NCBI GenBank assembly: GCA_900544965.1
Contig: UQXE01000001.1
Coordinates: 1,855 to 65,854, forward strand
From: an uncultured Eubacteriales bacterium
GTDB taxonomy: Bacteria; Bacillota; Clostridia; Christensenellales; CAG-138
Reading direction: 5' to 3'
Length of the DNA stretch: 64,000 nt
Shown: in pieces, positions 13,993 to 52,046 of the stretch
Layout: each line of letters starts with the position of its first letter
Position numbering within the stretch: position 1 is the first letter of the stretch
The notes under the pieces: model-generated
Seen by the model: the letters and a program-made list of their open reading frames with translations, nothing else
Databases searched by the model: none
What the model was told of the DNA's origin: nothing
Position numbers and translations under genes: made by a program

Positions 13993-15918
13993 TCAATGAA
14001 ATTCATCAATAAACGCATCTAATTCTGAATTTTTTCTTTCCCAGTCCTGATACAGAAGCTCAACCCTCTTAGCTATTTCCCTTGCCCTTTCATCAAGCTC
14101 CCCCGTCTTTTTATAGTTTGAGGCGACATCGGGCTTAGCCATTTGTGCAGCTATAGCCTCTTGCTCGGCCTCCGCATTCATTATGCGTTCCTCTATACGC
14201 CTTATCTCGCCCTTAATACGGTTGACAGCGCTTTGAAGCTCCTTTTGACGTTTATAATCATTTTGTTTTGCCTTTCCCGATGATGCGATTGACCGGTTTT
14301 TGTTCCTCCTATACGTCTTTGCCTCAACAAAGTCGTCATATCCTCCAATATACTCGGTAATCCCCTCTTCGTCCATGTATAATACTCTGTCGGCAAGCTT
14401 GTTGACAAGGTATCTGTCGTGGGTAACGATGATCATCGTTCCCCCATAATCCATTAATGCGCTTTCAAGGGCCTCCCTGGAGGCTATATCAAGATGGTTT
14501 GTCGGCTCGTCCAGGAGCAGAAAATTAGCCTGAGAAAGCATCAGTTTAAGCAGCTGTACCCGTGCCTTTTCACCTCCTGACAGGTTGGCGACCTTCTTTT
14601 CAATGTCGTCGCCCCTAAACAGGAATGCCGCAAGCGCGTTTCTTATCTGGCTATGCGTCATTTTTGTATAGTGATCGTCCCAAACCTCGTCTAAAACGCT
14701 CTTTTGAGCTGAAAGCTGGCCCAGCGTCTGATCATAATAGCCCACGCTAACATGCGCACCATAGTTGAAAAAGCCTGAATCGCTGCGTTCCTGTCTCGCC
14801 AATATCCTTAGAAGCGTCGTCTTTCCGCATCCGTTCGCGCCGATTAGGAATACCCTCTCCCCTTTCGTTATGTGCAGGTTAACTTTATCAAATATTTTCT
14901 TTCCATCATATCCCTTTGACAAATCCTCCGCAATAAGGACGTCGTTTCCGCTGATATCTTTCGCAGTAAAACCGAACTTGATGGACTGGGGATCCCTTTC
15001 AGGCTCTACAAGGGTGTTTTTTAGCCGTTCTATCTGTTTTAGTTTTGATTCGGCGGTGACAAAGTTGCGCTCCTGTCCCCATCTCCTCTGCTGCTCCACT
15101 ATTCCGTAGATGCGCCTGATCTCCCTTTGCGTATTTTGATAATGCCTAAGCTGGATTTCACGCTCAGTACCCCTGCGCTCCATATGGCTAGTATAATTGC
15201 CCTGACTGGAATACAGCGATCCCAGCTTAAGCTCCAACGTTCTGTTTGTGATCTTATCCAGTAAATAACGGTCATGTGATATGACAATAAACGCCCCTGA
15301 GTACGATTTTAAATACTCTTCAAGCCACTCAATGCTCTCAACGTCAAGATGGTTAGTAGGTTCGTCCAGCATAAGGAGGTCAGCGCCAGACAGCAGCACC
15401 CGGGCAAGCTGGGCCTTATTGCGCTGCCCTCCGCTGAACGTCTTTAGCTGCCTTTTAAGATCGCTGTCGGTAAATCCCAGGCCAAGCGCCGCCGACCTGG
15501 CCCTGCTGCGGAATGTAAGGCCGCCTTCCATTTCAAACCGCTCCTGTAAAACATGCTGCCGGTTTATAAGCGAGTCAACGTTACCCTCTCCCAGGCTCAG
15601 CTTTTGCGCTATTTTCTCAAGCTCCCTTTCCATATCCTCAAGATGGGAAAAAACCTTCATAATGCTGTCCAACAGGGTCAAACCGTCGTCTTCGATATGT
15701 TGCTGCATTGTGCCAACAGCGGTCCCCTTTGAATAATGTATAGTTCCTTCATCGGGCGCGTCCATGCCAATCAGCATATTCATCAGGGTTGTTTTGCCGC
15801 ATCCATTCACTCCCACAAGACCAACCTTATCCTTTGAATCTATATCAAAATTTAGATTTTCAAATAAAATCCGATCCACAAATGCTTTTTTTAAATTTCT
15901 TACCGTTAATATTAACAT
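13993..15918 (-). CDS. ABC-F family ATPase (two ABC domains, no TM domain, C-terminal coiled coil)
   Basis: Two Walker A motifs (GVNGCGKTT, GANGCGKTT), two LSGG signatures, and a charged C-terminal extension. Confidence 0.85.
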   Translation of the reverse strand: MLILTVRNLKKAFVDRILFENLNFDIDSKDKVGLVGVNGCGKTTLMNMLIGMDAPDEGTIHYSKGTAVGTMQQHIEDDGLTLLDSIMKVFSHLEDMERELEKIAQKLSLGEGNVDSLINRQHVLQERFEMEGGLTFRSRARSAALGLGFTDSDLKRQLKTFSGGQRNKAQLARVLLSGADLLMLDEPTNHLDVESIEWLEEYLKSYSGAFIVISHDRYLLDKITNRTLELKLGSLYSSQGNYTSHMERRGTEREIQLRHYQNTQREIRRIYGIVEQQRRWGQERNFVTAESKLKQIERLKNTLVEPERDPQSIKFGFTAKDISGNDVLIAEDLSKGYDGKKIFDKVNLHITKGERVFLIGANGCGKTTLLRILARQERSDSGFFNYGAHVSVGYYDQTLGQLSAQKSVLDEVWDDHYTKMTHSQIRNALAAFLFRGDDIEKKVANLSGGEKARVQLLKLMLSQANFLLLDEPTNHLDIASREALESALMDYGGTMIIVTHDRYLVNKLADRVLYMDEEGITEYIGGYDDFVEAKTYRRNKNRSIASSGKAKQNDYKRQKELQSAVNRIKGEIRRIEERIMNAEAEQEAIAAQMAKPDVASNYKKTGELDERAREIAKRVELLYQDWERKNSELDAFIDEFH

Positions 15919-24682: not shown

Positions 24683-24718
24683 CTTTATTCATTGAAAATT
24701 AATTTGGAGGGAAATATT

Positions 24719-27130
24719 ATGGCTGAAAGATACGATCCTGCCGCTATAGAGGAGAAGTGGCAGAAGAACTGGGAGGAGGCGCGCTGTTTTGAGGCCAAGG
24801 ACGACTATTCCATGCCAAAGTACTACGCGCTTATAGAGTTTCCGTATCCTTCGGGAGAGGGTCTGCATGTGGGCCATCCCCGTTCAAACACGGCGCTCGA
24901 TATAATAGCAAGGAAAAGGCGGATGGAGGGCTATAATGTGCTGTTCCCCATCGGCTACGACGCATTTGGCCTGCCCACGGAAAATTACGCTATAAAGACA
25001 GGGCTTCATCCTCAGAGGGTTACCGAGGCCAACATAGCTAAATTCCGCGGGCAGCTAAAAAGGCTGGGCTTCTCCTTTGACTGGTCCAGAGAGATAAACA
25101 CCTCTGATCCCGAATATTACAGATGGACGCAGTGGATCTTTCTAAAGCTGTTTGAAAGAGGGCTTGCATACAAGGCGGAAATCCCCATAAACTTCTGCAC
25201 CTCATGCAAGGTGGGACTGGCTAATGAGGAGGTTGTAAACGGCGTATGCGAGCGGTGCGGCGGCGAGGTGGTCCAGCGGGTTAGAAGTCAATGGATGCTG
25301 AGGATAACGGAATACGCCCAGAGGCTTTTAGACGATCTGGACGCCGTAGATTTTATTGAGCGGGTTAAAACCCAGCAGAAGAATTGGATAGGACGAAGCG
25401 AGGGGGCTGAAATCGACTTTCCCGTTTCGGGAACGGATGAGACCCTAAGGGTGTTTACCACCAGACCGGATACTCTGTTTGGAGCGACCTATATGGTAAT
25501 TGCCCCTGAACATCCCCTGCTGGAGCGGTTTGCCGACAGAATAGATAATTTAGCGGAAGTAAGGTCCTATCAGTGTATTGCCGCTCATAAGAGCGATTTT
25601 GAACGCGGCGAGCTTTCAAGGGAAAAAACGGGCGTTCAACTTAAGGGGCTTAACGCGGTAAATCCGGCTACGGGCAAGGAGATACCAATCTGGATATCCG
25701 ATTATGTTTTGATGAGTTACGGGACAGGGGCGATAATGTCCGTGCCTGCTCACGACTCAAGGGATTTTGAGTTTGCAAGGGCTTTTAGCCTTCCGATAAT
25801 TGAGGTAATAGCCGGCGGGGACGTATCAAAGGAGGCCTATACCGACTGCAAGCATGGGGTGCTGGTCAACTCCGGTTTTCTCAACGGCATGGAGGTTGGC
25901 GATGCAATCCCAGCTATGATACGGTGGCTGGAGAAAAAAGGCATAGGCGAAAAAAAGGTCAACTATAAGCTTCGCGACTGGGTGTTTACACGCCAGCGCT
26001 ATTGGGGCGAACCAATACCGCTTGTGTATTGCGATCGCTGCGGATGGGTTCCGCTGCCCTATGACGAGCTGCCGCTTAAGCTTCCTGATGTAGACGACTA
26101 TGCCCCGTCCGACGACGGCTCGTCAGCGCTATCCAAGGCCGCCGAGTGGGTTCATGCATCCTGCCCTAAATGTGGCGCTCCCGCCTTGCGTGAAACCGAC
26201 ACGATGCCAAACTGGGCTGGGTCAAGCTGGTATTATATGCGTTATACGGACCCGCATAACGATAAGGCCCTCGCATCAAAGGAAGCCTTGGATTACTGGC
26301 TCCCCGTTGACTGGTACAATGGAGGCATGGAGCATACTACGCTGCACCTGCTGTACTCACGTTTCTGGCATAAGTTTTTATATGATATTGGCGTAGCATC
26401 CACGCCAGAACCGTATTTAAAGCGCACCAGTCATGGAATGATACTAGGTGAGAATGGAGAAAAAATGTCCAAGTCGCGCGGCAATGTGATAGCCCCCGAT
26501 TCAATAGTGGATGAAATCGGGGCGGACGCGTTCCGCATGTACGAAATGTTTATGGGCGCCTTTGACCAGCCCATACCCTGGAGCACGCAGGGCGCAAAGG
26601 GATGCAAACGCTTCCTTGACAGGGTTTGGCGGCTCATGGACATGCTGATCAGCTATGATGGCATACGGCCTGAGATGCGTCCGCTTATACATGGCGCCAT
26701 AAAGAAGGTTGGCGAGGATTATGAACGGATGAAGTTCAATACTGCCATAGCAGCGCTGATGAGCCTTGTAAACGAAATGTACGCTATTGGAGGGATTGCC
26801 AGGGAAGAACTGCATACCCTGCTGACTCTGCTTTCGCCCGTTTCCCCCCATATATGCGAAGAGATGAACGAGCTATTGGGTTATACAACCCCTCTGTACG
26901 ATGCTCAATGGCCTCAGTATGACGAATCCGCGCTCATAAAGGAGTCGATGGAATACGGAGTGCAAATAAACGGTAAGATCAAAGCCCGTATTGAACTGCC
27001 TTGCGGTATTGACAGGGAAGAGACTGAACGGCTGGCGCTTGGGCACAGAGGGGTAACGCCTCTCATAGAAGGCAGGACCGTACGAAAGGTCATCGTGGCA
27101 AAGAATGTAATCAATATCGTTGTTTCATAG
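24719..27130 (+). CDS. leuS: leucyl-tRNA synthetase
   Basis: [19 protein letters not shown]-terminus, HVGH (HIGH-type) and KMSKS motifs. The SD TGGAGGG lies upstream of the ATG at 24719. Confidence 0.95.
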
Positions 27131-31807: not shown

Positions 31808-32065
31808 TCATCTGTTTTTCATATATCTGTACGACTTATCAACTTTGCTTGCGGGAAGGAGCGTTTTAATATCCGTCCTGCAAGCAACATAATCCAGATT
31901 GACCTTGTAATAGTCGGCAATCTTTATAATAATTTCTAGCGGAATGTTTATATGCCCGTTTTCATATAGCGAATATGTGCTTTGATGGATTCCTAATTCA
32001 TCCGCTAATGTTTGTTGTTTTAAGTCCTTATCCAACCTTAGCTCTTTTAAACGATTTGTAACCAT
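31808..32065 (-). CDS. small XRE-family HTH regulator, copy A
   Basis: 85 aa, MVTNRLKELRLDKDLKQQTLADELGIHQSTYSLYENG... (HTH_3). The GAGGTG SD is 6 nt upstream of the ATG at 32065. Confidence 0.75.
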   Translation of the reverse strand: MVTNRLKELRLDKDLKQQTLADELGIHQSTYSLYENGHINIPLEIIIKIADYYKVNLDYVACRTDIKTLLPASKVDKSYRYMKNR

Positions 32066-32126
32066 AAAATTCACCTCTGTCTGACGAAACACTCAAATTT
32101 TTAATGGATCATGGCCAATTACAACG

Positions 32127-32384
32127 TCATCTGTCCTTCATATATCTATATGACTTATCCGCTTTGCTTGCGGGAAGAAGGGTTTTAACATCCGACCTGC
32201 AAGCAACATAATCCAAATTCACCTTATAGTAATCAGCAATCTTTATGATGATTTCTAGCGGAATGTTTATATGCCCGTTTTCATATAGCGAATATGTGCT
32301 TTGATGGATTCCTAATTCATCCGCTAATGTTTGTTGTTTTAAGTCCTTATCCAACCTTAGCTCTTTTAAACGATTTGTAACCAT
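32127..32384 (-). CDS. small XRE-family HTH regulator, copy B
   Basis: 85 aa, differing from copy A at only 4 C-terminal residues, with the same SD and 5' region. Confidence 0.75.
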   Translation of the reverse strand: MVTNRLKELRLDKDLKQQTLADELGIHQSTYSLYENGHINIPLEIIIKIADYYKVNLDYVACRSDVKTLLPASKADKSYRYMKDR

Positions 32385-32770
32385 AAAATTCACCTCTGTC
32401 TATTGAATATATCAGATTGATGTTATAATTCTTAGTTATATTGGGAATTCCAATAAAAACTGCAATTTTTGTATTACACTTGTAGTATGACATGAATATT
32501 TCTTTACCCAATATATTTATAAAAAAACATCGTAATATGTCAGGCTGTCAAAAACCCTCGGATTTGTCAAAGGCCGCAGCCCTCGACTTTAAATCCGGCT
32601 CTGACGACAGGCGCCTCAGCGACGGATTTAAACGGTGTGGTTTTGGTTCTTTGCGGGTTTTGCCGCTCGGGAACCTCAAGGGCGGTAGGCAATACCCTTG
32701 CCTTCAATAAGTGGCGCAGCCGCTTTTTTGACACTCTGATATGTGTTATAATGTGGCCGAGGTGAACCAT

Positions 32771-44726: not shown

Positions 44727-45575
44727 TCATTCGTCCCTGCCGCAATGCTTTGCCGCCAGCTCGTCATGAGATCTATCCACCGTACGCGTAACCATTTCGC
44801 TGATTTTGGCGGTATCTCCCATTGCGGTTCCACGATCCTTTTTTAGTATCAGAAGAAACTCTATATTACCCTTTGGGCCGGTTATCGGGGAATAGTCCAT
44901 ACCAATTATAGCATATCCGCTTTTTTCAGAAAATAAGGCTATGTCGGTTAAAACGCCGCGGTGGGTTTCTGGCGAACGAACAACCCCATTCTTGCCTACC
45001 TTATCCCTGCCCGCCTCAAACTGAGGCTTGACAAGCGCTACAACTATCCCTCCCTGTTTAAGGCAGTCGTATAGTGGAGCCAGTATCAGCTTAAGCGAAA
45101 TAAACGATACGTCTACGGACGCAAAATCCAGATAACCTTCATACCAGGATGGCTCCATATTCCTGGCGTTATGACGCTCGAGCACTATAACACGCGGATC
45201 GTTGCGCAGCTTCCAGTCGAGCTGCCCGTATCCTACATCAACCGCAAAGACCTTTTCCGCGCCGTAGGTAAGCATACAATCCGTAAACCCCCCTGTCGAC
45301 GCGCCGATATCGGCGGCAAAGCATCCGGTTAAATCCAAGGCATTTGCGTCAATAGCCTTTTTTAGCTTAAGTCCGCCCCTGCTCACAAAGGGTATGGGGT
45401 CCTCTTTAACCGTTATTAAGTCGCCGCTGGACACGGGAGCGCCGGCTTTGTCAATTCTAATTCCGTTTTTATACACAACCCCGGACATGATGAGGGATCT
45501 TGCCCTTTCTCTGCTGACAGCAAGGCCTAGCTCAACCATACGTATATCGGCTCGTATATTATTGCCGGATTTCAT
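44727..45575 (-). CDS. tlyA: TlyA-family rRNA 2'-O-ribose methyltransferase
   Basis: S4 domain at the N-terminus (RADIRMVELGLAVSRERARSLI) and an FtsJ-like SAM domain (DIGASTGGFTD). Confidence 0.85.
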   Translation of the reverse strand: MKSGNNIRADIRMVELGLAVSRERARSLIMSGVVYKNGIRIDKAGAPVSSGDLITVKEDPIPFVSRGGLKLKKAIDANALDLTGCFAADIGASTGGFTDCMLTYGAEKVFAVDVGYGQLDWKLRNDPRVIVLERHNARNMEPSWYEGYLDFASVDVSFISLKLILAPLYDCLKQGGIVVALVKPQFEAGRDKVGKNGVVRSPETHRGVLTDIALFSEKSGYAIIGMDYSPITGPKGNIEFLLILKKDRGTAMGDTAKISEMVTRTVDRSHDELAAKHCGRDE

Positions 45576-47425
45576 ATTGTATCAAGCGCCTCCTTCAGTC
45601 TCCTCCTTATCTGCTTAGCAGTAAGGCCGCAGATTTCATCCTGCTCAGATACAGTAGCATGTCCTACGGGATGGTCCATAACGCCTAAATTTACAAGCCT
45701 TACGGCTTTCCCGCAAACCGCCTGGGCTATTAAAGCCCCAAAACCGCACGTTGTTATCCCGTCCTCCAGCGTTATTATAACATCCGAGGATTCAATAAGC
45801 CTATCAAGCACGCTCCTGTCAAGCGGCCTGATAAACCTCGCGTTTATCACTCCCACCGATAGGCCTTCCGCAGCTTCAAGCGCGGTCTGTACAAGCCTTC
45901 CGGTTGCAATTACATTAACGTTTTTTATTTCCCGCAAAACGTTCCATCTTCCATATTCTATATCATCGTTTATGCCCAATGTTTCAATAAGCACGCCGCG
46001 ATTATATCTTATCGCGCTGGGCTTATCCAGCGTTAAGGCGTGTCTTAGCATCATACGCAGCTCCTCCTGCGAGGCGGGAGAATAGATCGTAATCCCAGGG
46101 GCGCTTAGAAGATAAGCAATATCGTAAACGCCCTGATGGGTTTCGCCGTCCTCGCCCACTAGGCCGGCCCGGTCAACAGCCAATATTACGGGCAGCTGCT
46201 GCAGGCAAACATCGTGTATAATCTGATCATAGGCCCTCTGCAGGAATGTCGAATATATTGCCGCTACAGGACGCATGCCGCCTGCCGCGAGTCCGGCGGC
46301 GAGCGTAACAGCGTGCTGCTCGGCTATGCCGACGTCAAAGAAGCGGTCTGGGTACAGTCTGAAGAAATCCGAAAGGCCTGTTCCGCTTGCCATTGCGGCG
46401 GTTATTGCGCATATTCTAGGATCATAACCAGCCAGGCGCGAAAGCTCCTCTCCAAATATTTTTGAGTTGCTTGCCGATGGTTTCCGTTTAAGCGCCCCGG
46501 TCTCCTTATAAAACGGCGCTACGCCATGAAACAGCTCTGGATCCCGTTCGGCCGGAGGATAGCCTTTCCCCTTTTTTGTCACCACATGGATTGCTACAGG
46601 CTTGTCAAAGCCCTTTGCCTTTCCAAGCACTTCCAATAGTTCGTGGATGTTATGCCCGTCTACAGGCCCTATGTATGTAAAACCCATCGCCTCAAACCAT
46701 ATGTTGCTTGGCAGCATAAAGTATTTAAGTCTGTTTTTGAATTTCTCAATGCGCTTTGCCGCCCACTTTCCTACCCTTGTGCGGTCAAGGATACGGACAG
46801 TCGACTTTTTCAACGACCTATAACCCCTGCTTGCCCTCATCAGGTTCAAATGCTTGCTCATTGCGCTTGCGTTATAGGATATAGACATATCATTGTCATT
46901 TATAACCACAATAATCGGCAGCTGGCGCTGTCCCGCGTCGTCCAGGGCTTCATACGCCATCCCGCCGGTAAGAGCCCCGTCCCCTATCACCGCCACAACG
47001 GCGCCTTTCTCCCCTTTTAGGCGCTTTGCGCATAAAATTCCAAGCGCGGCTGATACAGAGGTGCTCGAATGGCCGGTTTCAAATATATCGCAGGGGCTTT
47101 CACTCCTCTTAGGGAACCCGCTTATTCCTCCAAGACGCCTCAAACGTTTAAAGCCTTCGCGCCTGCCTGTGAGTATCTTATGAATGTATGCCTGATGACC
47201 TACGTCAAATATCAGGGAATCCTCAGGCACGTCAAAAACGCGGTGCAGCGCTATTGTAAGCTCTACAACGCCCAGGTTTGAGGCAAGATGGCCTCCATTT
47301 TCAGATACGGAGTCGACAAGAAACGAACGAATTTCTTCTGCAAGCGGCTCAAGGTATGTGCTGCTCAGCGACTTAAACTGTTCGATACTATTGATCTTAC
47401 TCAAAATCGGATATTTCTCCATCAT
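45572..47425 (-). CDS. dxs: 1-deoxy-D-xylulose-5-phosphate synthase
   Basis: MMEKYPILSKINS N-terminus, GDGALTGGMAYEAL TPP motif. The start is placed at ATG 47425, after the stop of the upstream gene (47433). Confidence 0.95.
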   Translation of the reverse strand: MMEKYPILSKINSIEQFKSLSSTYLEPLAEEIRSFLVDSVSENGGHLASNLGVVELTIALHRVFDVPEDSLIFDVGHQAYIHKILTGRREGFKRLRRLGGISGFPKRSESPCDIFETGHSSTSVSAALGILCAKRLKGEKGAVVAVIGDGALTGGMAYEALDDAGQRQLPIIVVINDNDMSISYNASAMSKHLNLMRASRGYRSLKKSTVRILDRTRVGKWAAKRIEKFKNRLKYFMLPSNIWFEAMGFTYIGPVDGHNIHELLEVLGKAKGFDKPVAIHVVTKKGKGYPPAERDPELFHGVAPFYKETGALKRKPSASNSKIFGEELSRLAGYDPRICAITAAMASGTGLSDFFRLYPDRFFDVGIAEQHAVTLAAGLAAGGMRPVAAIYSTFLQRAYDQIIHDVCLQQLPVILAVDRAGLVGEDGETHQGVYDIAYLLSAPGITIYSPASQEELRMMLRHALTLDKPSAIRYNRGVLIETLGINDDIEYGRWNVLREIKNVNVIATGRLVQTALEAAEGLSVGVINARFIRPLDRSVLDRLIESSDVIITLEDGITTCGFGALIAQAVCGKAVRLVNLGVMDHPVGHATVSEQDEICGLTAKQIRRRLKEALDTI

Positions 47426-47432
47426 CGAAGCA

Positions 47433-48029
47433 TTACTTCGCACTGGATTTTTTCCGTTCGCCGTTTTTGGAAAACAGCGCAAACAACTTTCCAACCATAA
47501 ACACTATCCTTTGGCTGTGCTTCGTCGCGATACGCTTGCCCGACGCTTTCCCGCTTACGGTTATCGCGGCTATAAGCGCTGATATAGCAACATTTACTAT
47601 CAATGCTTCTGTAGTTGCGGCGGAGATTATTATTGACGCCGCAACGGCCGCGCCCATCGCTCCCGACACTATTCCGCATATATCGCCTACAACGTCGTTA
47701 CAAATATTGGCCACCATGGCTGAGTTTTGAACGAGCCTTATTGAGTGTTTTGCTCCGCGAATCCGCTTTGACGCCATAGCCGTATATGCCGTAACGTCCT
47801 GTATGGTCACTGCCACGCCGACTATATCAAATAAAATCCCAATAAATATTATAAATACCAGTACGAATACCGCCACATACAGCGGCACCCCAAGCAAAAC
47901 CGTTTCAGACAAAAAGCTTAACACAAGCGCTATCGCCAATGTGATAAAAAAGACCTTTACAGGCCAAATATCTCGCTTTTTCTTGCGGCGCCTGTTCTTG
48001 GCGTCGCTCTTCTTTTGTTGTGTATCCAT
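47433..48029 (-). CDS. oapA: OapA-like small polytopic membrane protein (OLE-associated protein A candidate)
   Basis: About 198 aa from MDTQQKKSDAKNRRRKKKRD, i.e. a highly basic N-terminus, followed by about 4 TM helices. It occupies the position between the ORF-less gap and dxs. GGAG lies upstream of the ATG at 48029. Confidence 0.65.
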   Translation of the reverse strand: MDTQQKKSDAKNRRRKKKRDIWPVKVFFITLAIALVLSFLSETVLLGVPLYVAVFVLVFIIFIGILFDIVGVAVTIQDVTAYTAMASKRIRGAKHSIRLVQNSAMVANICNDVVGDICGIVSGAMGAAVAASIIISAATTEALIVNVAISALIAAITVSGKASGKRIATKHSQRIVFMVGKLFALFSKNGERKKSSAK

Positions 48030-48056
48030 ACATCTCCACATGCCATATATAGATAT

Positions 48057-48619
48057 ATGGTGGTGGCACATTGAGTAAACTTTGCGCCTTAAGGTCCGGC
48101 TAGATTTCCTCGCCCGCCACTCCCCGTCGCCGTTAGAAGCGGTTTCCCATTATGTCGGACGCTGCGCTGTCTCCATACGCAGGGCCGGACTGCCACTTAG
48201 CGCGCACCGTAATCCCCAATATGCCTTAATTCCAACAGTCTAGGAGCTTTCCTCAGCAGCTTTGCCATCCCCTAGCCTCTTTTGCAGTACAGGTTTCAAA
48301 AGGGTTATGCAGAATTGCCAAACCGCCTTATTCCCCTGACACCACTCAAGGCAGGCTACACTGTACACAGCGTTTACCGCAATACAGGTTTAATCCTATT
48401 GAGTAATCGAACTCAAGTTGCCGACCACCCATATAGGTCTCCACGAAGAACGGGTCGCCTTCCGCATGCCTTTGCAGACCGCCCGGTCTTCTTAACTCCC
48501 AGCATAAACCCCCGACTGGCATCGAAAGCAAACACCAGGAACTTCATCGATGTGCCCTCAACGGATTTTTAGGCCCGCTTTCAGGAACAGCATTGCTGAC
48601 TAGAATACTGCACCACCAT
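48057..48619 (-). ncRNA. OLE (ornate, large, extremophilic) RNA candidate
   Basis: There is a 626-nt gap with no credible ORF between ispA and the oapA-like gene. The flanking gene order matches the described OLE neighbourhood. A perfect 9-bp closing helix (48611-48619 with 48057-48065) encloses the segment, which has many internal hairpins. The exact ends were not determined. Confidence 0.7.
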
Positions 48620-48655
48620 TATTATTTTGCCACAGCGTGCAGTCAAATGCAAGCG

Positions 48656-49543
48656 TCAATATTTCCTGTCCATCGTCATTCCGATAAGCGAACTGAAGAA
48701 CTCCGTGTCCCCGTCAATTCTATACAGTGCCTTTCTCGCCCTTTCGGAAGCATTTTCAGCCATAATCCTTGATTGCTCCAATCCAAAAAGGGTTACATAG
48801 GTGAGCTTTTTAGTTTTTGCGTCCTTGCCTATGCTTTTGCCAAGTGCATTAATGTCTCCTGTGCAATCCAGAATATCGTCCGTAATCTGAAACAGCATTC
48901 CAAATGCATCCCCAAATTCCATTAACGCACAAATCCATTGCGAATCGGCGCCCCCCACATACGCCCCTGCCAGTACCGACGCCCTGATTAACGCTCCGGT
49001 CTTGTCCTTATGTATCGACCTTAACGTATCCTCACTATAATCATCGTCCAAAGAGGCTTTTATATCCTTCATCTGTCCCGCTATCATTCCAGTAGCTCCA
49101 ATCGCTCTTGCCACCTCCCTGACCGCTTTAAAATAGCCCTCGTTCTCACGATGCCGATCCAAGCCGTCAAGCATAAGTTCAAATGCCGATGAAAGCAGCG
49201 CATCGCCGGCAAGTATAGCGGTTGCCTCTCCAAAAGCCTTATGATTTGACGGTTTGCCCCTCCTGAAATCGTCGTTATCCATAGCGGGCAAGTCGTCGTG
49301 TATTAATGAGTATGTATGAAGCATCTCTATCGCCCCCGCTATCGGCAACGCGGTGGTAACATCCCCTCCAGCTAGCCTACAGGCAGCCAGCGTCATGCAT
49401 GGCCTAAGGCGCTTCCCCCCCGCTTCCAGACTGTAAAGCATTGAAGCCTGAAGCGGTGCGGGGATGAGAGCGGTTTTTACGTATGACAATATATATGGTT
49501 CCACCATAGACCTATACTCGTTTAACACAGGGGCAAGCTCCAT
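48656..49543 (-). CDS. ispA: farnesyl diphosphate synthase (polyprenyl synthetase family)
   Basis: Two aspartate-rich motifs (IHDDLPAMDNDDFRRG and ITDDILD); 295 aa. Confidence 0.9.
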   Translation of the reverse strand: MELAPVLNEYRSMVEPYILSYVKTALIPAPLQASMLYSLEAGGKRLRPCMTLAACRLAGGDVTTALPIAGAIEMLHTYSLIHDDLPAMDNDDFRRGKPSNHKAFGEATAILAGDALLSSAFELMLDGLDRHRENEGYFKAVREVARAIGATGMIAGQMKDIKASLDDDYSEDTLRSIHKDKTGALIRASVLAGAYVGGADSQWICALMEFGDAFGMLFQITDDILDCTGDINALGKSIGKDAKTKKLTYVTLFGLEQSRIMAENASERARKALYRIDGDTEFFSSLIGMTMDRKY

Positions 49544-49763: not shown

Positions 49764-51124
49764 CCCTCCTTGTTCTTTATTTCAGCCTCGGCTGTTCCGT
49801 CGCGCATTATCAGTTCAATGCGTTTTCCGGTTGTTAAATCATCCGTGGAGTACAGATAATCCCCACCTTTTGATCTTATCATAGCAAAACCCCGCCTCAG
49901 CACATTTTCAGGTCCGCATAGCCGTAGGCTTTCAGCGATACCTTGCATGCGGTTCCTAAGGTTGTCCATTGACGAGTCCATGCCGTTCCTAAGCGCTTTA
50001 ATATTACCATCCGATCTATCCTGTTGTTTATATATCGCATGCATTATATCCATTTTAACATGCGGGGCCGTTATTTCTCTCGCTCTGCTCCTGCCGTTGC
50101 TTAATCTTAAATTAGCAGCCCCGTCGATTGAGTCTATTCTTGTCGACAAACTTTGCCGACCCGCGTCGATGCGATAGACTGGAATCATAACCGCATGTGA
50201 GGAGGTTATGGAGCTGACACGCGCCTGCCTCTCAGATATTTTACTTTTTACGGCTTTGGTCATATTGCTCTGTACGGCGCTTAACGACGCCATAATCGAC
50301 TCCATCTCAGGGGTGCACAGCTCAGCCGCGGCTGATGGCGTAGGAGCGCGCATGTCGGCTGCAAAATCCGATATTGTGTAGTCGGTTTCATGGCCAACAG
50401 CGCTAACCACCGGTATCGAACAGTCGTAGATTGCCCTGGCCACATCCTCATCATTGAACGGCCAAAGATCTTCAACGCTTCCCCCTCCCCTGCATACGAT
50501 GAGCACGTCGGCCAGTTTGAGCCTGTCCATTCTCCGTATCGCGGCGGCAATCTGCGCGGCGGCTCCCTCTCCCTGTACGGCAGTGGGGCAGAGCAGTATA
50601 TTCATCTTTGGAAATCTTCTCGTTACGACATTTTTGATATCCGAGTATACTGCGCCCATCTCTGACGTTACCACGCCTATACATCTGGGCAGCGCCGGAA
50701 GCGGCTTTTTATGCGACTCGTCAAACAACCCCTCTTTAGACAGCTTCTCCTTAAGCCGCATGAAGCGGGCGTACAGCTCCCCCTCCCCCTGCTGCTCCAT
50801 CTCCTTTACGTATAATTGATAACGCCCCTCCTGTGTATATATGCTTACATAGCCTCTGGCAGTAACGGACATTCCGTTTGACGGCTTAAATCCTAAGCCG
50901 AACGAATCGGGCTTAAACATAACGCAGCTTATCACTGAAGCTTCGTCTTTTAGCGAAAAATAAGCGTGCCCCGACGTGTGGCGCTTATACCCTGAAATCT
51001 CACCCTTTACACTGATATTTTTCAGCAGAAAGTCACGGCGAAGCAAATTTGCAGCATAATCATTTAGCTGGCTAACGCTCAATACCAACTCAGCCACCGC
51101 TCTTATACATCCTTTCAAATTCAT
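49760..51124 (-). CDS. xseA: exodeoxyribonuclease VII large subunit
   Basis: LSVSQLNDY...GEISGYKRHTSGHAYFSLKDE OB-fold N-terminus; 454 aa. A GAAGG SD lies upstream of the ATG at 51124. Confidence 0.9.
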   Translation of the reverse strand: MNLKGCIRAVAELVLSVSQLNDYAANLLRRDFLLKNISVKGEISGYKRHTSGHAYFSLKDEASVISCVMFKPDSFGLGFKPSNGMSVTARGYVSIYTQEGRYQLYVKEMEQQGEGELYARFMRLKEKLSKEGLFDESHKKPLPALPRCIGVVTSEMGAVYSDIKNVVTRRFPKMNILLCPTAVQGEGAAAQIAAAIRRMDRLKLADVLIVCRGGGSVEDLWPFNDEDVARAIYDCSIPVVSAVGHETDYTISDFAADMRAPTPSAAAELCTPEMESIMASLSAVQSNMTKAVKSKISERQARVSSITSSHAVMIPVYRIDAGRQSLSTRIDSIDGAANLRLSNGRSRAREITAPHVKMDIMHAIYKQQDRSDGNIKALRNGMDSSMDNLRNRMQGIAESLRLCGPENVLRRGFAMIRSKGGDYLYSTDDLTTGKRIELIMRDGTAEAEIKNKEG

Positions 51125-52046
51125 GCCGCGCCTTCAGAGCGACCCCTACCGCATTGTCCGACGAGAGCTTGGGCAACGCAAATTCAACGATAATTTCCCT
51201 CTTTCTAGATTTAAGCCTATTGACGAGCAGGTTTCTGAGAATACCGCTTGACGCCACGCCTCCGGCAAGCAGATACCGATTTATTCCCGTCTTTTCCAAA
51301 GCGTTTATGATCATCTTCGCAAATGTCCTGGCCAGGCATTCGTATAAGGCACGAGCTATTTTGGCATGATCCTCCGCACCGTCAACCATGCCTATCAGCC
51401 GCGTTTCAGCGCCTGAAAAGGAACAGTTCAAGTTATTTACCGAACTTGGAACGATTATATCCGAACAATCCGTTTTAAGCGCAAGCTCCTCCATCCGCTT
51501 GCCCGCCGGAAAAGTGCAACCCATTCTAACCCCTATCCGGTCCACAAGCTGTCCTGCGTGAATATCCAGCGAACCGCCGAGCTTGGTTATATTGAAGCAT
51601 TCGTCAACTAATAGTAACTCTGTCGTTCCCCCTGATATATGCATTGCGATAAACGGGCTGCCGCAAAAGGCTGCGTTTGAATATAATGCCGCCATTATAT
51701 GGCCCTCCTGATGCGAGGTTTCAAACATCGGTATGCTAAGAGCCGACGCAATCGCCCTTGCAGCCATTGTGCCAACCAGGAATACCGGCATATATGAATC
51801 TGGCGCAGGATTTGGAACAGAACTAACCGCCAACGCGCCAATATTTCCTTTATCAAGTTCGTTAAGCGCCGAGTGCAGCATTTTATCCAGATTTCTTGTA
51901 TGCAAAAATACCCCTTCGCTTTGGCGCAGGCCCCGCCCTCCAGGTGCCACCGCTAAAGGGGTTCTCATATCAACAACTATAGAATTATGGCTGACGCATG
52001 CTATCGAAGTAGTATAGCAGCTGGTATCTATCCCTAAGAATATCAT
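51090..52046 (-). CDS. Kae1/TsaD-family (peptidase M22-like, ASKHA fold) paralogue
   Basis: MIFLGIDTSCYTTSIA start and a HQEGH metal-binding-like motif; 318 aa. It overlaps xseA by 35 nt. Confidence 0.6.
   Translation of the reverse strand: MIFLGIDTSCYTTSIACVSHNSIVVDMRTPLAVAPGGRGLRQSEGVFLHTRNLDKMLHSALNELDKGNIGALAVSSVPNPAPDSYMPVFLVGTMAARAIASALSIPMFETSHQEGHIMAALYSNAAFCGSPFIAMHISGGTTELLLVDECFNITKLGGSLDIHAGQLVDRIGVRMGCTFPAGKRMEELALKTDCSDIIVPSSVNNLNCSFSGAETRLIGMVDGAEDHAKIARALYECLARTFAKMIINALEKTGINRYLLAGGVASSGILRNLLVNRLKSRKREIIVEFALPKLSSDNAVGVALKARHEFERMYKSGG

Follow-up and report, generated by a model that had tools for sequence, protein, structure and literature searches.

The 626-nt spacer between ispA and a small membrane protein gene in the window (the whole stretch of DNA that was analysed, 64,000 nucleotides in length) almost certainly is the gene of an OLE RNA of ca. 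560 to 590 nt that is encoded on the minus strand. The OLE RNAs (for ornate, large, extremophilic) form a well-known class of large structured noncoding RNAs of anaerobic Gram-positive bacteria, and their hosts are Bacillota that are usually anaerobic or extremophilic. The copy described here is an ordinary, high-scoring member of this known class that lies in canonical context and has one shortened arm.

Scanning the whole 64-kb window against Rfam 15 gave two matches, a T-box elsewhere and OLE (RF01071) on the minus strand at 48632-48044, and no Rfam match in the window to GOLLD, ROOL, or raiA. The OLE match covers 589 nt and positions 1-616 of the 616 model positions without truncation, at 466.2 bits (gathering score 50; E 1.1e-133), with the conserved core of the RNA running from the 5′ strand of P1 (48617) through the 3′ strand of P1 (48059). 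This is the outcome of the very search, Infernal with the Rfam OLE model on the minus strand, by which the initial annotation had suggested that its candidate OLE RNA be checked. Full-length similarity to RF01071, a conserved spacer, and an OapA homologue encoded downstream all bear that proposal out. The proposal erred only in the details of its helices and in the implied claim of a notable discovery, for this is a routine Rfam match: An Rfam scan names the locus at once, and its recognition from raw sequence was correct but added no new biology. Both the OLE class and forms with a shortened P9 are already known, and the structural peculiarity of the window copy lies within published variation.

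When the structure of the Rfam model is projected on the window copy, 134 of its 143 pairs (94%) are canonical, and the noncanonical ones lie mainly at the tips of hairpins, in places where it is shorter. Likewise, of 194 columns whose conservation among 72 other OLE RNAs reaches 95% or more, the window copy retains 190 (98%). The minimum free energy fold independently recovers P1, P3, P4, P5, P6, P7, and P9, with a z score of −3.75 compared to dinucleotide shuffles. A twin assembly (L001) carries an OLE RNA identical to that of the window, and the one in contig OHKU01000032.1 (L162; 464 bits) differs from it by 3 substitutions over ca. 590 nt. The presence of the same form in both of them argues against a one-off assembly error.

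Gene neighborhood and the partner gene oapA

The stop codon of ispA (TGA) lies at 48656-48658 and the next minus-strand gene most plausibly starts with the ATG at 48029, preceded by a Shine-Dalgarno sequence (GGAG) at 48034-48037. The stretch from 48030 to 48655 therefore holds no credible gene, in line with the ORF-less gap of 626 nt that had been described between ispA and the small membrane protein gene. A longer reading of the downstream gene, from ATG 48071, would extend into the RNA. Pfam and NCBIfam assignments give the minus-strand order recN, argR, nadK, tlyA (FtsJ plus S4), dxs, small membrane protein, and gap, which continues beyond the gap with ispA (FPP synthase), xseB, xseA, a TsaD-like gene, and nusB, just as it had been read from nusB to recN before. 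Farther upstream follow DUF2273, an AmaP-like Asp23-domain protein, Asp23 (yqhY-like), and the spoIIIA operon. The upstream neighbor ispA (farnesyl diphosphate synthase; 48656..49543, minus strand) is recognized by PF00348 and by NF045485 (325.6 bits at a cut-off of 275). Downstream, dxs (TIGR00204, 718 bits) falls in the minus-strand ORF 45572..47494 and probably starts inside it, given that the call in L001 is 623 aa long. The gene spacing of 0 to 40 nt quoted by the initial annotation is nearly right, since genes around the OLE locus overlap or lie 1 to 16 nt apart, but it misses the nadK/argR spacer of ca. 207 nt.

This arrangement matches the published OLE neighborhood, which comprises spoIIIA, Asp23/yqhY, nusB, xseA, xseB, ispA, ole, oapA, dxs, tlyA, nadK, argR, and recN (PMC12265935). 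The gene types that typically accompany OLE (isoprenoid synthesis, DNA repair, translation, and sporulation) are all found around the copy in the window. The spoIIIA operon and spore-germination genes in the window agree with the Bacillota as the host type of OLE carriers, and the nearest OapA and OLE relatives come from Clostridia metagenome-assembled genomes (MAGs).

The small membrane protein gene downstream of the gap (47433..48029, minus strand) starts 15 nt past the end of the Rfam OLE match on the same strand. Its 198-aa product is a homologue of OapA, an assignment that is based on its homologues and on synteny. OapA homologues number 3629 at E ≤ 1e-3, and a profile of 33 of them led to 80 loci in species-representative genomes, nearly all of which are Clostridia MAGs, plus several Bacillaceae. 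Searching with the spacer of the window (nhmmer), we found OLE directly upstream of oapA and on the same strand at 76 of the 78 loci that hold the upstream flank, and Rfam confirms example OLEs upstream of oapA homologues at 355 to 517 bits. The earlier placement of oapA immediately downstream of the RNA is thus well founded. The closest species-representative OapA has just 62% identity to the protein of the window. Homologues from Lederbergia lenta, Aeribacillus pallidus, Siminovitchia fordii, and Bacillus sp. N9 share 41% to 44% identity with it (E ca. 1e-40), and OLE lies upstream of the gene in all four.

OapA has been described as a protein with four transmembrane helices whose cytoplasmic face is positively charged (PMC12265935), and the window protein agrees with this description because it has four hydrophobic segments and basic flanks. 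Three of the segments (ca. 52-70, 113-135, and 142-160) pass the hydropathy threshold of 1.5 in what was a crude scan, and the fourth (ca. 23-45) was assigned by eye. Lysine and arginine residues number 10 in residues 1-22, 5 in residues 76-105, and 9 in residues 166-198. An invariant DxxxD motif (CNDVvGDICG with D112 and D116) lies in the third segment, and the gene is intact with all family-invariant residues kept. The window OapA alone reached no Pfam or NCBIfam model, and a profile search of PDB sequences with OapA found nothing. Among the 33 aligned members of the family, 24 match PF01595 (CNNM; best E 2.2e-8), with the window protein below reporting level, and a relationship of OapA to MpfA has been proposed (PMC11332333).

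Genes for OapB (KOW), OapC/YbxF (L7Ae), bS21, or MpfA-type CNNM-CBS proteins were not found among the 30 ORFs of the window that were scanned. oapB and oapC need not be linked to ole, and not finding them in 64 kb allows no conclusion about the genome. From the published phylogenetic profile, the host would be expected to have oapB/ybzG, oapC/ybxF, and rpsU and to lack mpfA.

Conserved fold and transcription of the spacer

Conservation of the spacer in related genomes, on which the initial annotation had let its proposal depend, is evident from 74 other loci across which it is both conserved and covarying. We assembled a 75-sequence alignment of OLEs upstream of oapA homologues and counted the pairs annotated by Rfam together with P1, P2, and P3/P3.1, which the Rfam annotation leaves unpaired and which we derived from the sequence. 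In this alignment, which is based on MAFFT and not on structure, the 173 pairs of 25 helices are formed in 89.1% of cells (73.8% in shuffles), and double-sided changes occur in 133 of them. The covariation score of 0.481 is reached by none of 500 shuffles (0.195), a control that is inflated by the relatedness of the sequences, and this concern is answered in part by the score of only 0.10 to 0.12 that is obtained when the 3′ partners are slid by 1 to 3 columns. Compensatory changes back P1 and P3/P3.1 despite their absence from the Rfam annotation. All helices from P1 to P15 are present in the window copy, and they form the published two-domain architecture in which P1, P2, and P10-P15 on one side and P3-P9 on the other are connected by the P3/P3.1 stem.

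P1 is formed by GGUGGU at 48612-48617 and ACCACC at 48059-48064 (minus-strand reading, as for all elements below), and compensatory changes such as U-A to C-G are seen in 32 to 35 sequences, i.e., about half of them. It corresponds to the terminal pairing by which the segment had been described as closed, a perfect 9-bp helix of ATGGTGGTG (48619-48611) with CACCACCAT (48065-48057). This pairing is present and is the published P1, though conservation is limited to six of the nine pairs. An end-to-end pairing of this kind arises in 198 of 20,000 shuffles (ca. 1%). The six inner pairs (48617-48612 with 48064-48059) show covariation and are 95% paired in relatives, whereas the two outer A-U pairs are formed in 62% of relatives and the ninth, innermost pair (G48611-C48065) is in competition with a model pair of 99% conservation. 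We therefore trimmed P1 to the six conserved pairs.

Next to it, P2 pairs CAGU-AUU-CUAG (48600-48610) with CUAGACUG (48236-48243). It is 99% paired in the alignment and shows few covariations because it is nearly invariant. A palindromic sequence in or near P2 is one of two published OapA-binding sites (PMC12265935), and we infer that the palindromic CUAG within the 5′ strand is this site. P3/P3.1, a stem that has been proposed to span the membrane (PMC12265935), pairs CAGC-AA-UGCUGUUCCU (48583-48598) with 48257-48272 over 14 bp, 12 of which show double changes in the alignment.

Within the second domain, the P4 hairpin (48560-48579) has an A-rich loop, CCUAAAAA, that is the same as the consensus. 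It is followed by the k-turn region J4a/5 (48542-48557), by the P5/P5.1 hairpin (48496-48541) with loop L5.1 at 48517-48520, and by P6/P6.1 (48445-48491), which is supported by the Rfam model and the alignment and carries the loop AAGGCA. The hairpins P7 (48395-48437) and P8 (48360-48387), both short but within the normal range, lead to the P9 arm (48275-48352). On the 3′ side, model projection and the Rfam alignment place the P13 hairpin at 48162-48182 and the tetraloop of P14.1 at 48127-48130.

Three local helices had been proposed in addition, namely GACC/GGUC, GGCA..UCGA/UCGAUGCC, and CCCUUUUG/CAAAAGAGG. Their strands are indeed complementary in the window, but they form in just 33%, 63%, and 63% of the relatives, respectively, and their bases are used by other conserved helices. 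We have rejected them as parts of the fold; judged by the alignment, they are chance complementarities or at best alternative pairings.

The same alignment bears on the reading of the spacer as a small protein gene, to which we give next to no credence. The two ORFs on which this reading would rely, one of 96 aa on the plus strand (48282-48572) and one of 61 aa on the minus strand (48346-48531), both exist, and the gene caller used for L001 predicted an ORF of 44 aa in this spacer. Yet the two ORFs overlap on opposite strands, and the ORF called in L001 belongs to no Pfam family. The stretch homologous to the 96-aa ORF is 291, 307, 304, 308, and 344 nt long in the window and its close relatives, so that lengths differ by 13 to 17 and 53 nt and not by multiples of 3, and its stop patterns vary from species to species. 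Conservation instead tracks base-paired columns with compensatory changes. The initial annotation had likewise dismissed these ORFs as overlapping nonsense. As it expected, protein-based annotation leaves the locus blank, but it may also call a spurious small ORF, as in L001.

As a gene of a structured RNA, the locus would probably be transcribed from a promoter of its own. A candidate extended −10 element (TGgCAAAAT, 48624..48632, minus strand) directly precedes P1, and a candidate −35 box (TTGCAT, 48647..48652, minus strand) lies 17 nt upstream of it, within the 23 nt that follow the ispA stop codon. Relatives show the same register: TGnTAtAAT boxes end 6 to 13 nt before P1 in nearly all of 73 of them, with a TTG-type −35 box ca. 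17 nt upstream of the extended −10. The position of this element directly before P1 is conserved across many Clostridia and Bacilli, which argues for a start site of its own, located at the first P1 base, as a common trait of OLE. For the window copy, we predict a start near 48617, the position of this base. Another promoter, reported by a scan tool (TTGACT-17-AATAAT, 48646-48618), was set aside because its start would fall inside P1; the scan gave 3 sites where 2.3 are expected by chance. OLE may possibly be transcribed by read-through from ispA as well. No terminator-like site was found between OLE and oapA in our scan, which makes co-transcription likely, and transcription would probably run on into oapA. 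Co-transcription of OLE and oapA has been reported for H. halodurans (PMC12265935).

With no terminator before oapA and an oapA start 15 nt past the Rfam match, the primary transcript probably carries both, and this is what one would expect if the spacer were only a cis-acting 5′ leader that regulates oapA and dxs in the manner of a riboswitch and not a stable trans-acting RNA. We regard this as extremely improbable. The ca. 25 covarying helices and ca. 190 near-invariant positions over 590 nt exceed any known leader by far, and the family is documented as an abundant RNA of a membrane ribonucleoprotein (RNP) with proteins encoded elsewhere (PMC12265935, PMC9723947, PMC7936274). A shared transcript also does not set the two readings against each other, since a polycistronic transcript can be processed to a stable RNA, which has been reported in H. 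halodurans.

Protein-binding sites, dimer contacts, and the shortened P9 arm

The sites at which other OLE RNAs are bound by OapB and OapC are retained in the window copy. J4a/5 forms a k-turn that is bound by OapC/YbxF (PMC9723947), and the corresponding region, GGGCACAUCGAUGAAG, matches the Rfam consensus exactly and thus represents a putative OapC site. Binding of OapB requires a GNRA tetraloop together with a bulge of one nucleotide in P13 (PMC7936274). Both are present in CUGCG-U/A-UG-GAGA-CA-GCGCAG at 48162-48182, with the GAGA tetraloop at 48170-48173. The GCGA tetraloop of P14.1 is the published weak second OapB site (PMC7936274).

The bridges of the OLE dimers seen by cryo-EM include the A-rich L4 loop (B1), L5.1 with the P6.1 loop AAGGCA as its partner (B2), and a palindromic L9.3 kissing loop for which covariation has been reported (B3; PMC12286853). 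Judged by the sequence of its L4 loop, the window copy has B1 intact: CCUAAAAAUC is the majority form in the 75-sequence alignment and is the same in 59 of 73 metagenome copies. The other two contacts depart from what is usual. L5.1 reads GCCA, i.e., one C fewer than the GCCCA of ca. 145 other OLEs, and this form was seen only in the window, L001, and L162. GCCCA is a conserved feature of OLE RNAs and not a criterion of membership in the family.

Because MAFFT misaligned the tip of P9 in the window copy by two columns, we analyzed this arm by anchoring on its conserved flanks and folding each segment. Between these flanks, the window copy has 61 nt compared to 77 to 87 nt in all 73 other copies, which had been chosen by OapA similarity, making its arm ca. 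20 nt shorter than in these relatives. At least 71 of the 73 copies have a palindromic tetranucleotide in the apical loop of P9, mostly GGCC and otherwise GAUC, AGCU, GUAC, or UGCA, and this tip together with the arm length of 77 to 87 nt fits the kissing-loop bridge seen by cryo-EM. The P9 apex of the window copy, GCGG-UUUGGCAAUU-CUGC (48309-48326), contains GGCA and no palindromic tetranucleotide. A self-duplex of its loop is predicted at −4.8 kcal/mol with a central G-G mismatch, compared to −6.4 to −12.9 kcal/mol in relatives. The window copy thus has a P9 truncated by ca. 10 bp, a tip without self-complementary tetranucleotide, and an L5.1 that is one base shorter. Given the truncated, nonpalindromic P9 and the shortened L5.1, the loss of bridge B3 is probable and a change of B2 possible. 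Elsewhere, a conserved G is replaced by A at 48110.

These changes could be taken as signs of a decaying or nonfunctional OLE remnant, all the more as, of the four places at which the copy departs from highly conserved columns, three sit in published dimer contacts and the self-duplex of the P9 loop is weaker than in relatives. Nevertheless, we consider decay very unlikely for an RNA that retains 98% of its highly conserved positions and 94% of the model pairs and whose neighbor oapA is intact with all invariant residues kept. L162, a second population sample, has the same form with only 3 substitutions in ca. 590 nt, and variants with shortened P7-P9 have been published (PMC11332333). Even shorter P9 arms without a palindrome are abundant in metagenomes: Gapped pattern matching that retrieved only short P9 segments returned 111 contigs, most with a segment of 40 to 46 nt that forms a plain hairpin without a palindrome. 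Soda-lake sediments and digesters are the source of many of these OLEs, and their scores exceed the Rfam threshold by far. Since both the published variants and the 111 contigs lack the long arm, the long P9 with its kissing loop marks the full-length form of OLE and not the family.

Taking the RNA as a functional OLE, one may speculate, though we find it rather doubtful, that this lineage represents an evolutionary intermediate between the long-P9 form with its B3 palindrome and the short-P9 form, having an arm of half length, a kissing loop decayed from GGCC to GGCA, and a unique deletion in L5.1. If so, its dimer would be held mainly by the A-A bridge of L4 or adopt a different quaternary arrangement, and the lineage would offer a natural way to test to what extent OLE function depends on the dimer interface that has been published. 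The species combines an in-between P9 length with an altered L5.1, which may be useful to OLE biology, as may the contrast between P9 segments of 77 to 87 nt in 73 copies and of 40 to 46 nt in more than 100 metagenome contigs, and the conserved position of the promoter before P1.

Proposed function and comparison with known systems

By analogy to the systems studied in Halalkalibacterium halodurans and two Clostridium species, the RNA would be bound by the OapA encoded just downstream. OapB would bind the P13 GNRA hairpin and OapC/YbxF the k-turn near P5, and OLE would dimerize and form a membrane-localized RNP with OapA, OapB, and OapC. In these organisms, OapA is viewed as a putative divalent-cation transporter of the CNNM type, a role that its homologue in the window might share. 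The OLE RNP would then help the host to cope with stresses like alcohol, cold, excess Mg2+, and poor carbon sources.

Compared to the full-length OLE RNAs of Halalkalibacterium halodurans, Clostridium acetobutylicum, and C. botulinum (RF01071), the window copy shares the full-length match, helices P1-P15, and the order ispA-ole-oapA-dxs, and also resembles them in the A-rich L4, the k-turn region, P13 with its GNRA tetraloop and bulge, the GCGA of P14.1, and the 14-bp P3/P3.1 stem. It differs from them by its P9 of 61 nt, the nonpalindromic loop UUUGGCAAUU, the L5.1 sequence GCCA, and the A in place of G at 48110. Another point of reference is OLE "variant 1", which has shortened P7-P9, is commonest in the TANB77 clade, and often lacks the OapB site at the tip of P13 (Fernando and Breaker 2024, PMC11332333). 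By this description, the window copy may resemble variant 1: Its P9 is clearly shorter, and its P7 and P8 (45 and 25, respectively) are among the shorter ones of a broad range. It keeps the OapB site in P13 that many variant 1 RNAs do not have. With its 61 nt, the P9 is intermediate between the long class and the short class that is common in metagenomes (40 to 46 nt).

The OapA homologue resembles the CNNM/DUF21 domain of MpfA-type Mg2+ transporters in its length (ca. 190 aa), its number of hydrophobic segments (four), the basic segments on the cytoplasmic side, and the DxxxD motif, but unlike these transporters it is devoid of CBS and CorC domains, which is expected of an OapA. GOLLD, ROOL, and raiA are likewise large and highly structured RNAs that form homo-oligomers in vitro (PMC12286853). 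They occur in a different context, whereas the OLE RNA of the window shows no phage or tRNA association and lies between ispA and oapA.

Ends of the OLE RNA

Among the relatives of this locus retrieved through their OapA homologues (L002-L081), almost every examined OLE locus from Clostridia and Bacillaceae carries an extended -10 box (TGnTAtAAT) with a TTG-type -35 element at a conserved position just before helix P1, approximately 20-45 nt upstream of its strand. This positional conservation suggests that in many species OLE would be transcribed from a dedicated promoter, with the first base of P1 as the predicted 5' end of the RNA. Two of the retrieved loci, from uncultured Bacilli MAGs (L015 and L052), encode an oapA homologue and include its upstream flank, but gave no nhmmer match to OLE at E < 1e-5. 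Although unmatched, the flank of L015 has an OLE-like 5' start (GGTGCAT..TAT.CTAGT) behind a TGgTACAAT box, and both loci may harbor a diverged OLE, for which published variant 2 is one example.

At the other end, the stretch directly 3' of P1 and ahead of the oapA Shine-Dalgarno sequence contains an AT-rich, perfect inverted repeat (CCATATAT-CT-ATATATGG; 48043-48060, minus strand), which shares bases with the end of the P1 3' strand and with the two outer pairs of the 9-bp terminal pairing proposed in the initial annotation. Lacking a downstream U-tract, the repeat does not qualify as a terminator-like site. Relatives have different 3' flanks.

P9 length and a possible tertiary contact

The P9 segment, whose palindromic tip in the long form makes the published dimer bridge B3, spans 77-87 nt in 73 genome copies, compared to just 40-70 nt (mode 41-46) in 111 metagenome contigs (L082-L192), many of which were sampled in digesters and in the sediment of soda lakes (SL_*KL). 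In these short versions, the tip is a plain hairpin without the palindromic loop. The length distribution thus looks bimodal, with the metagenome side sampled at 40-70 nt only, as the search pattern admitted no other P9 gaps and long metagenome forms fall outside the count. Loss of the OapB site is separable from P9 shortening, since two OLEs (L006 and L061) are missing the P13 tip with its OapB-binding GNRA hairpin yet retain a long P9 with GGCC loop.

Within the invariant string GGGCAC of junction J4/4a, GGC (48555-48557, minus strand) is complementary to GCC in loop L5.1 (48518-48520, minus strand), and this complementarity is found in 70-72 of 72 relatives. Both triplets are invariant and therefore show no covariation. 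Their match may reflect a tertiary contact or may be coincidental.

Other features of the window

A T-box leader (RF00230; 24439-24655, plus strand; 120.8 bits, gathering score 93) directly precedes leuS (ORF 24692-27130, plus strand; TIGR00396, 972 bits). On the minus strand, we found an ABC-F protein gene (13993-15918; NCBIfam "ribosomal protection-like ABC-F", 464.8 bits, cut-off 380) and, next to each other, the genes of two XRE-type HTH_3 regulators that are paralogues (94 aa, 31808-32092; 88 aa, 32127-32393). A TsaD/Kae1-family paralogue (51090-52046, minus strand), at 140.7 bits well under the TsaD equivalog cut-off of 296.1, lies between nusB and xseA, a position occupied by folD in Bacillus subtilis.
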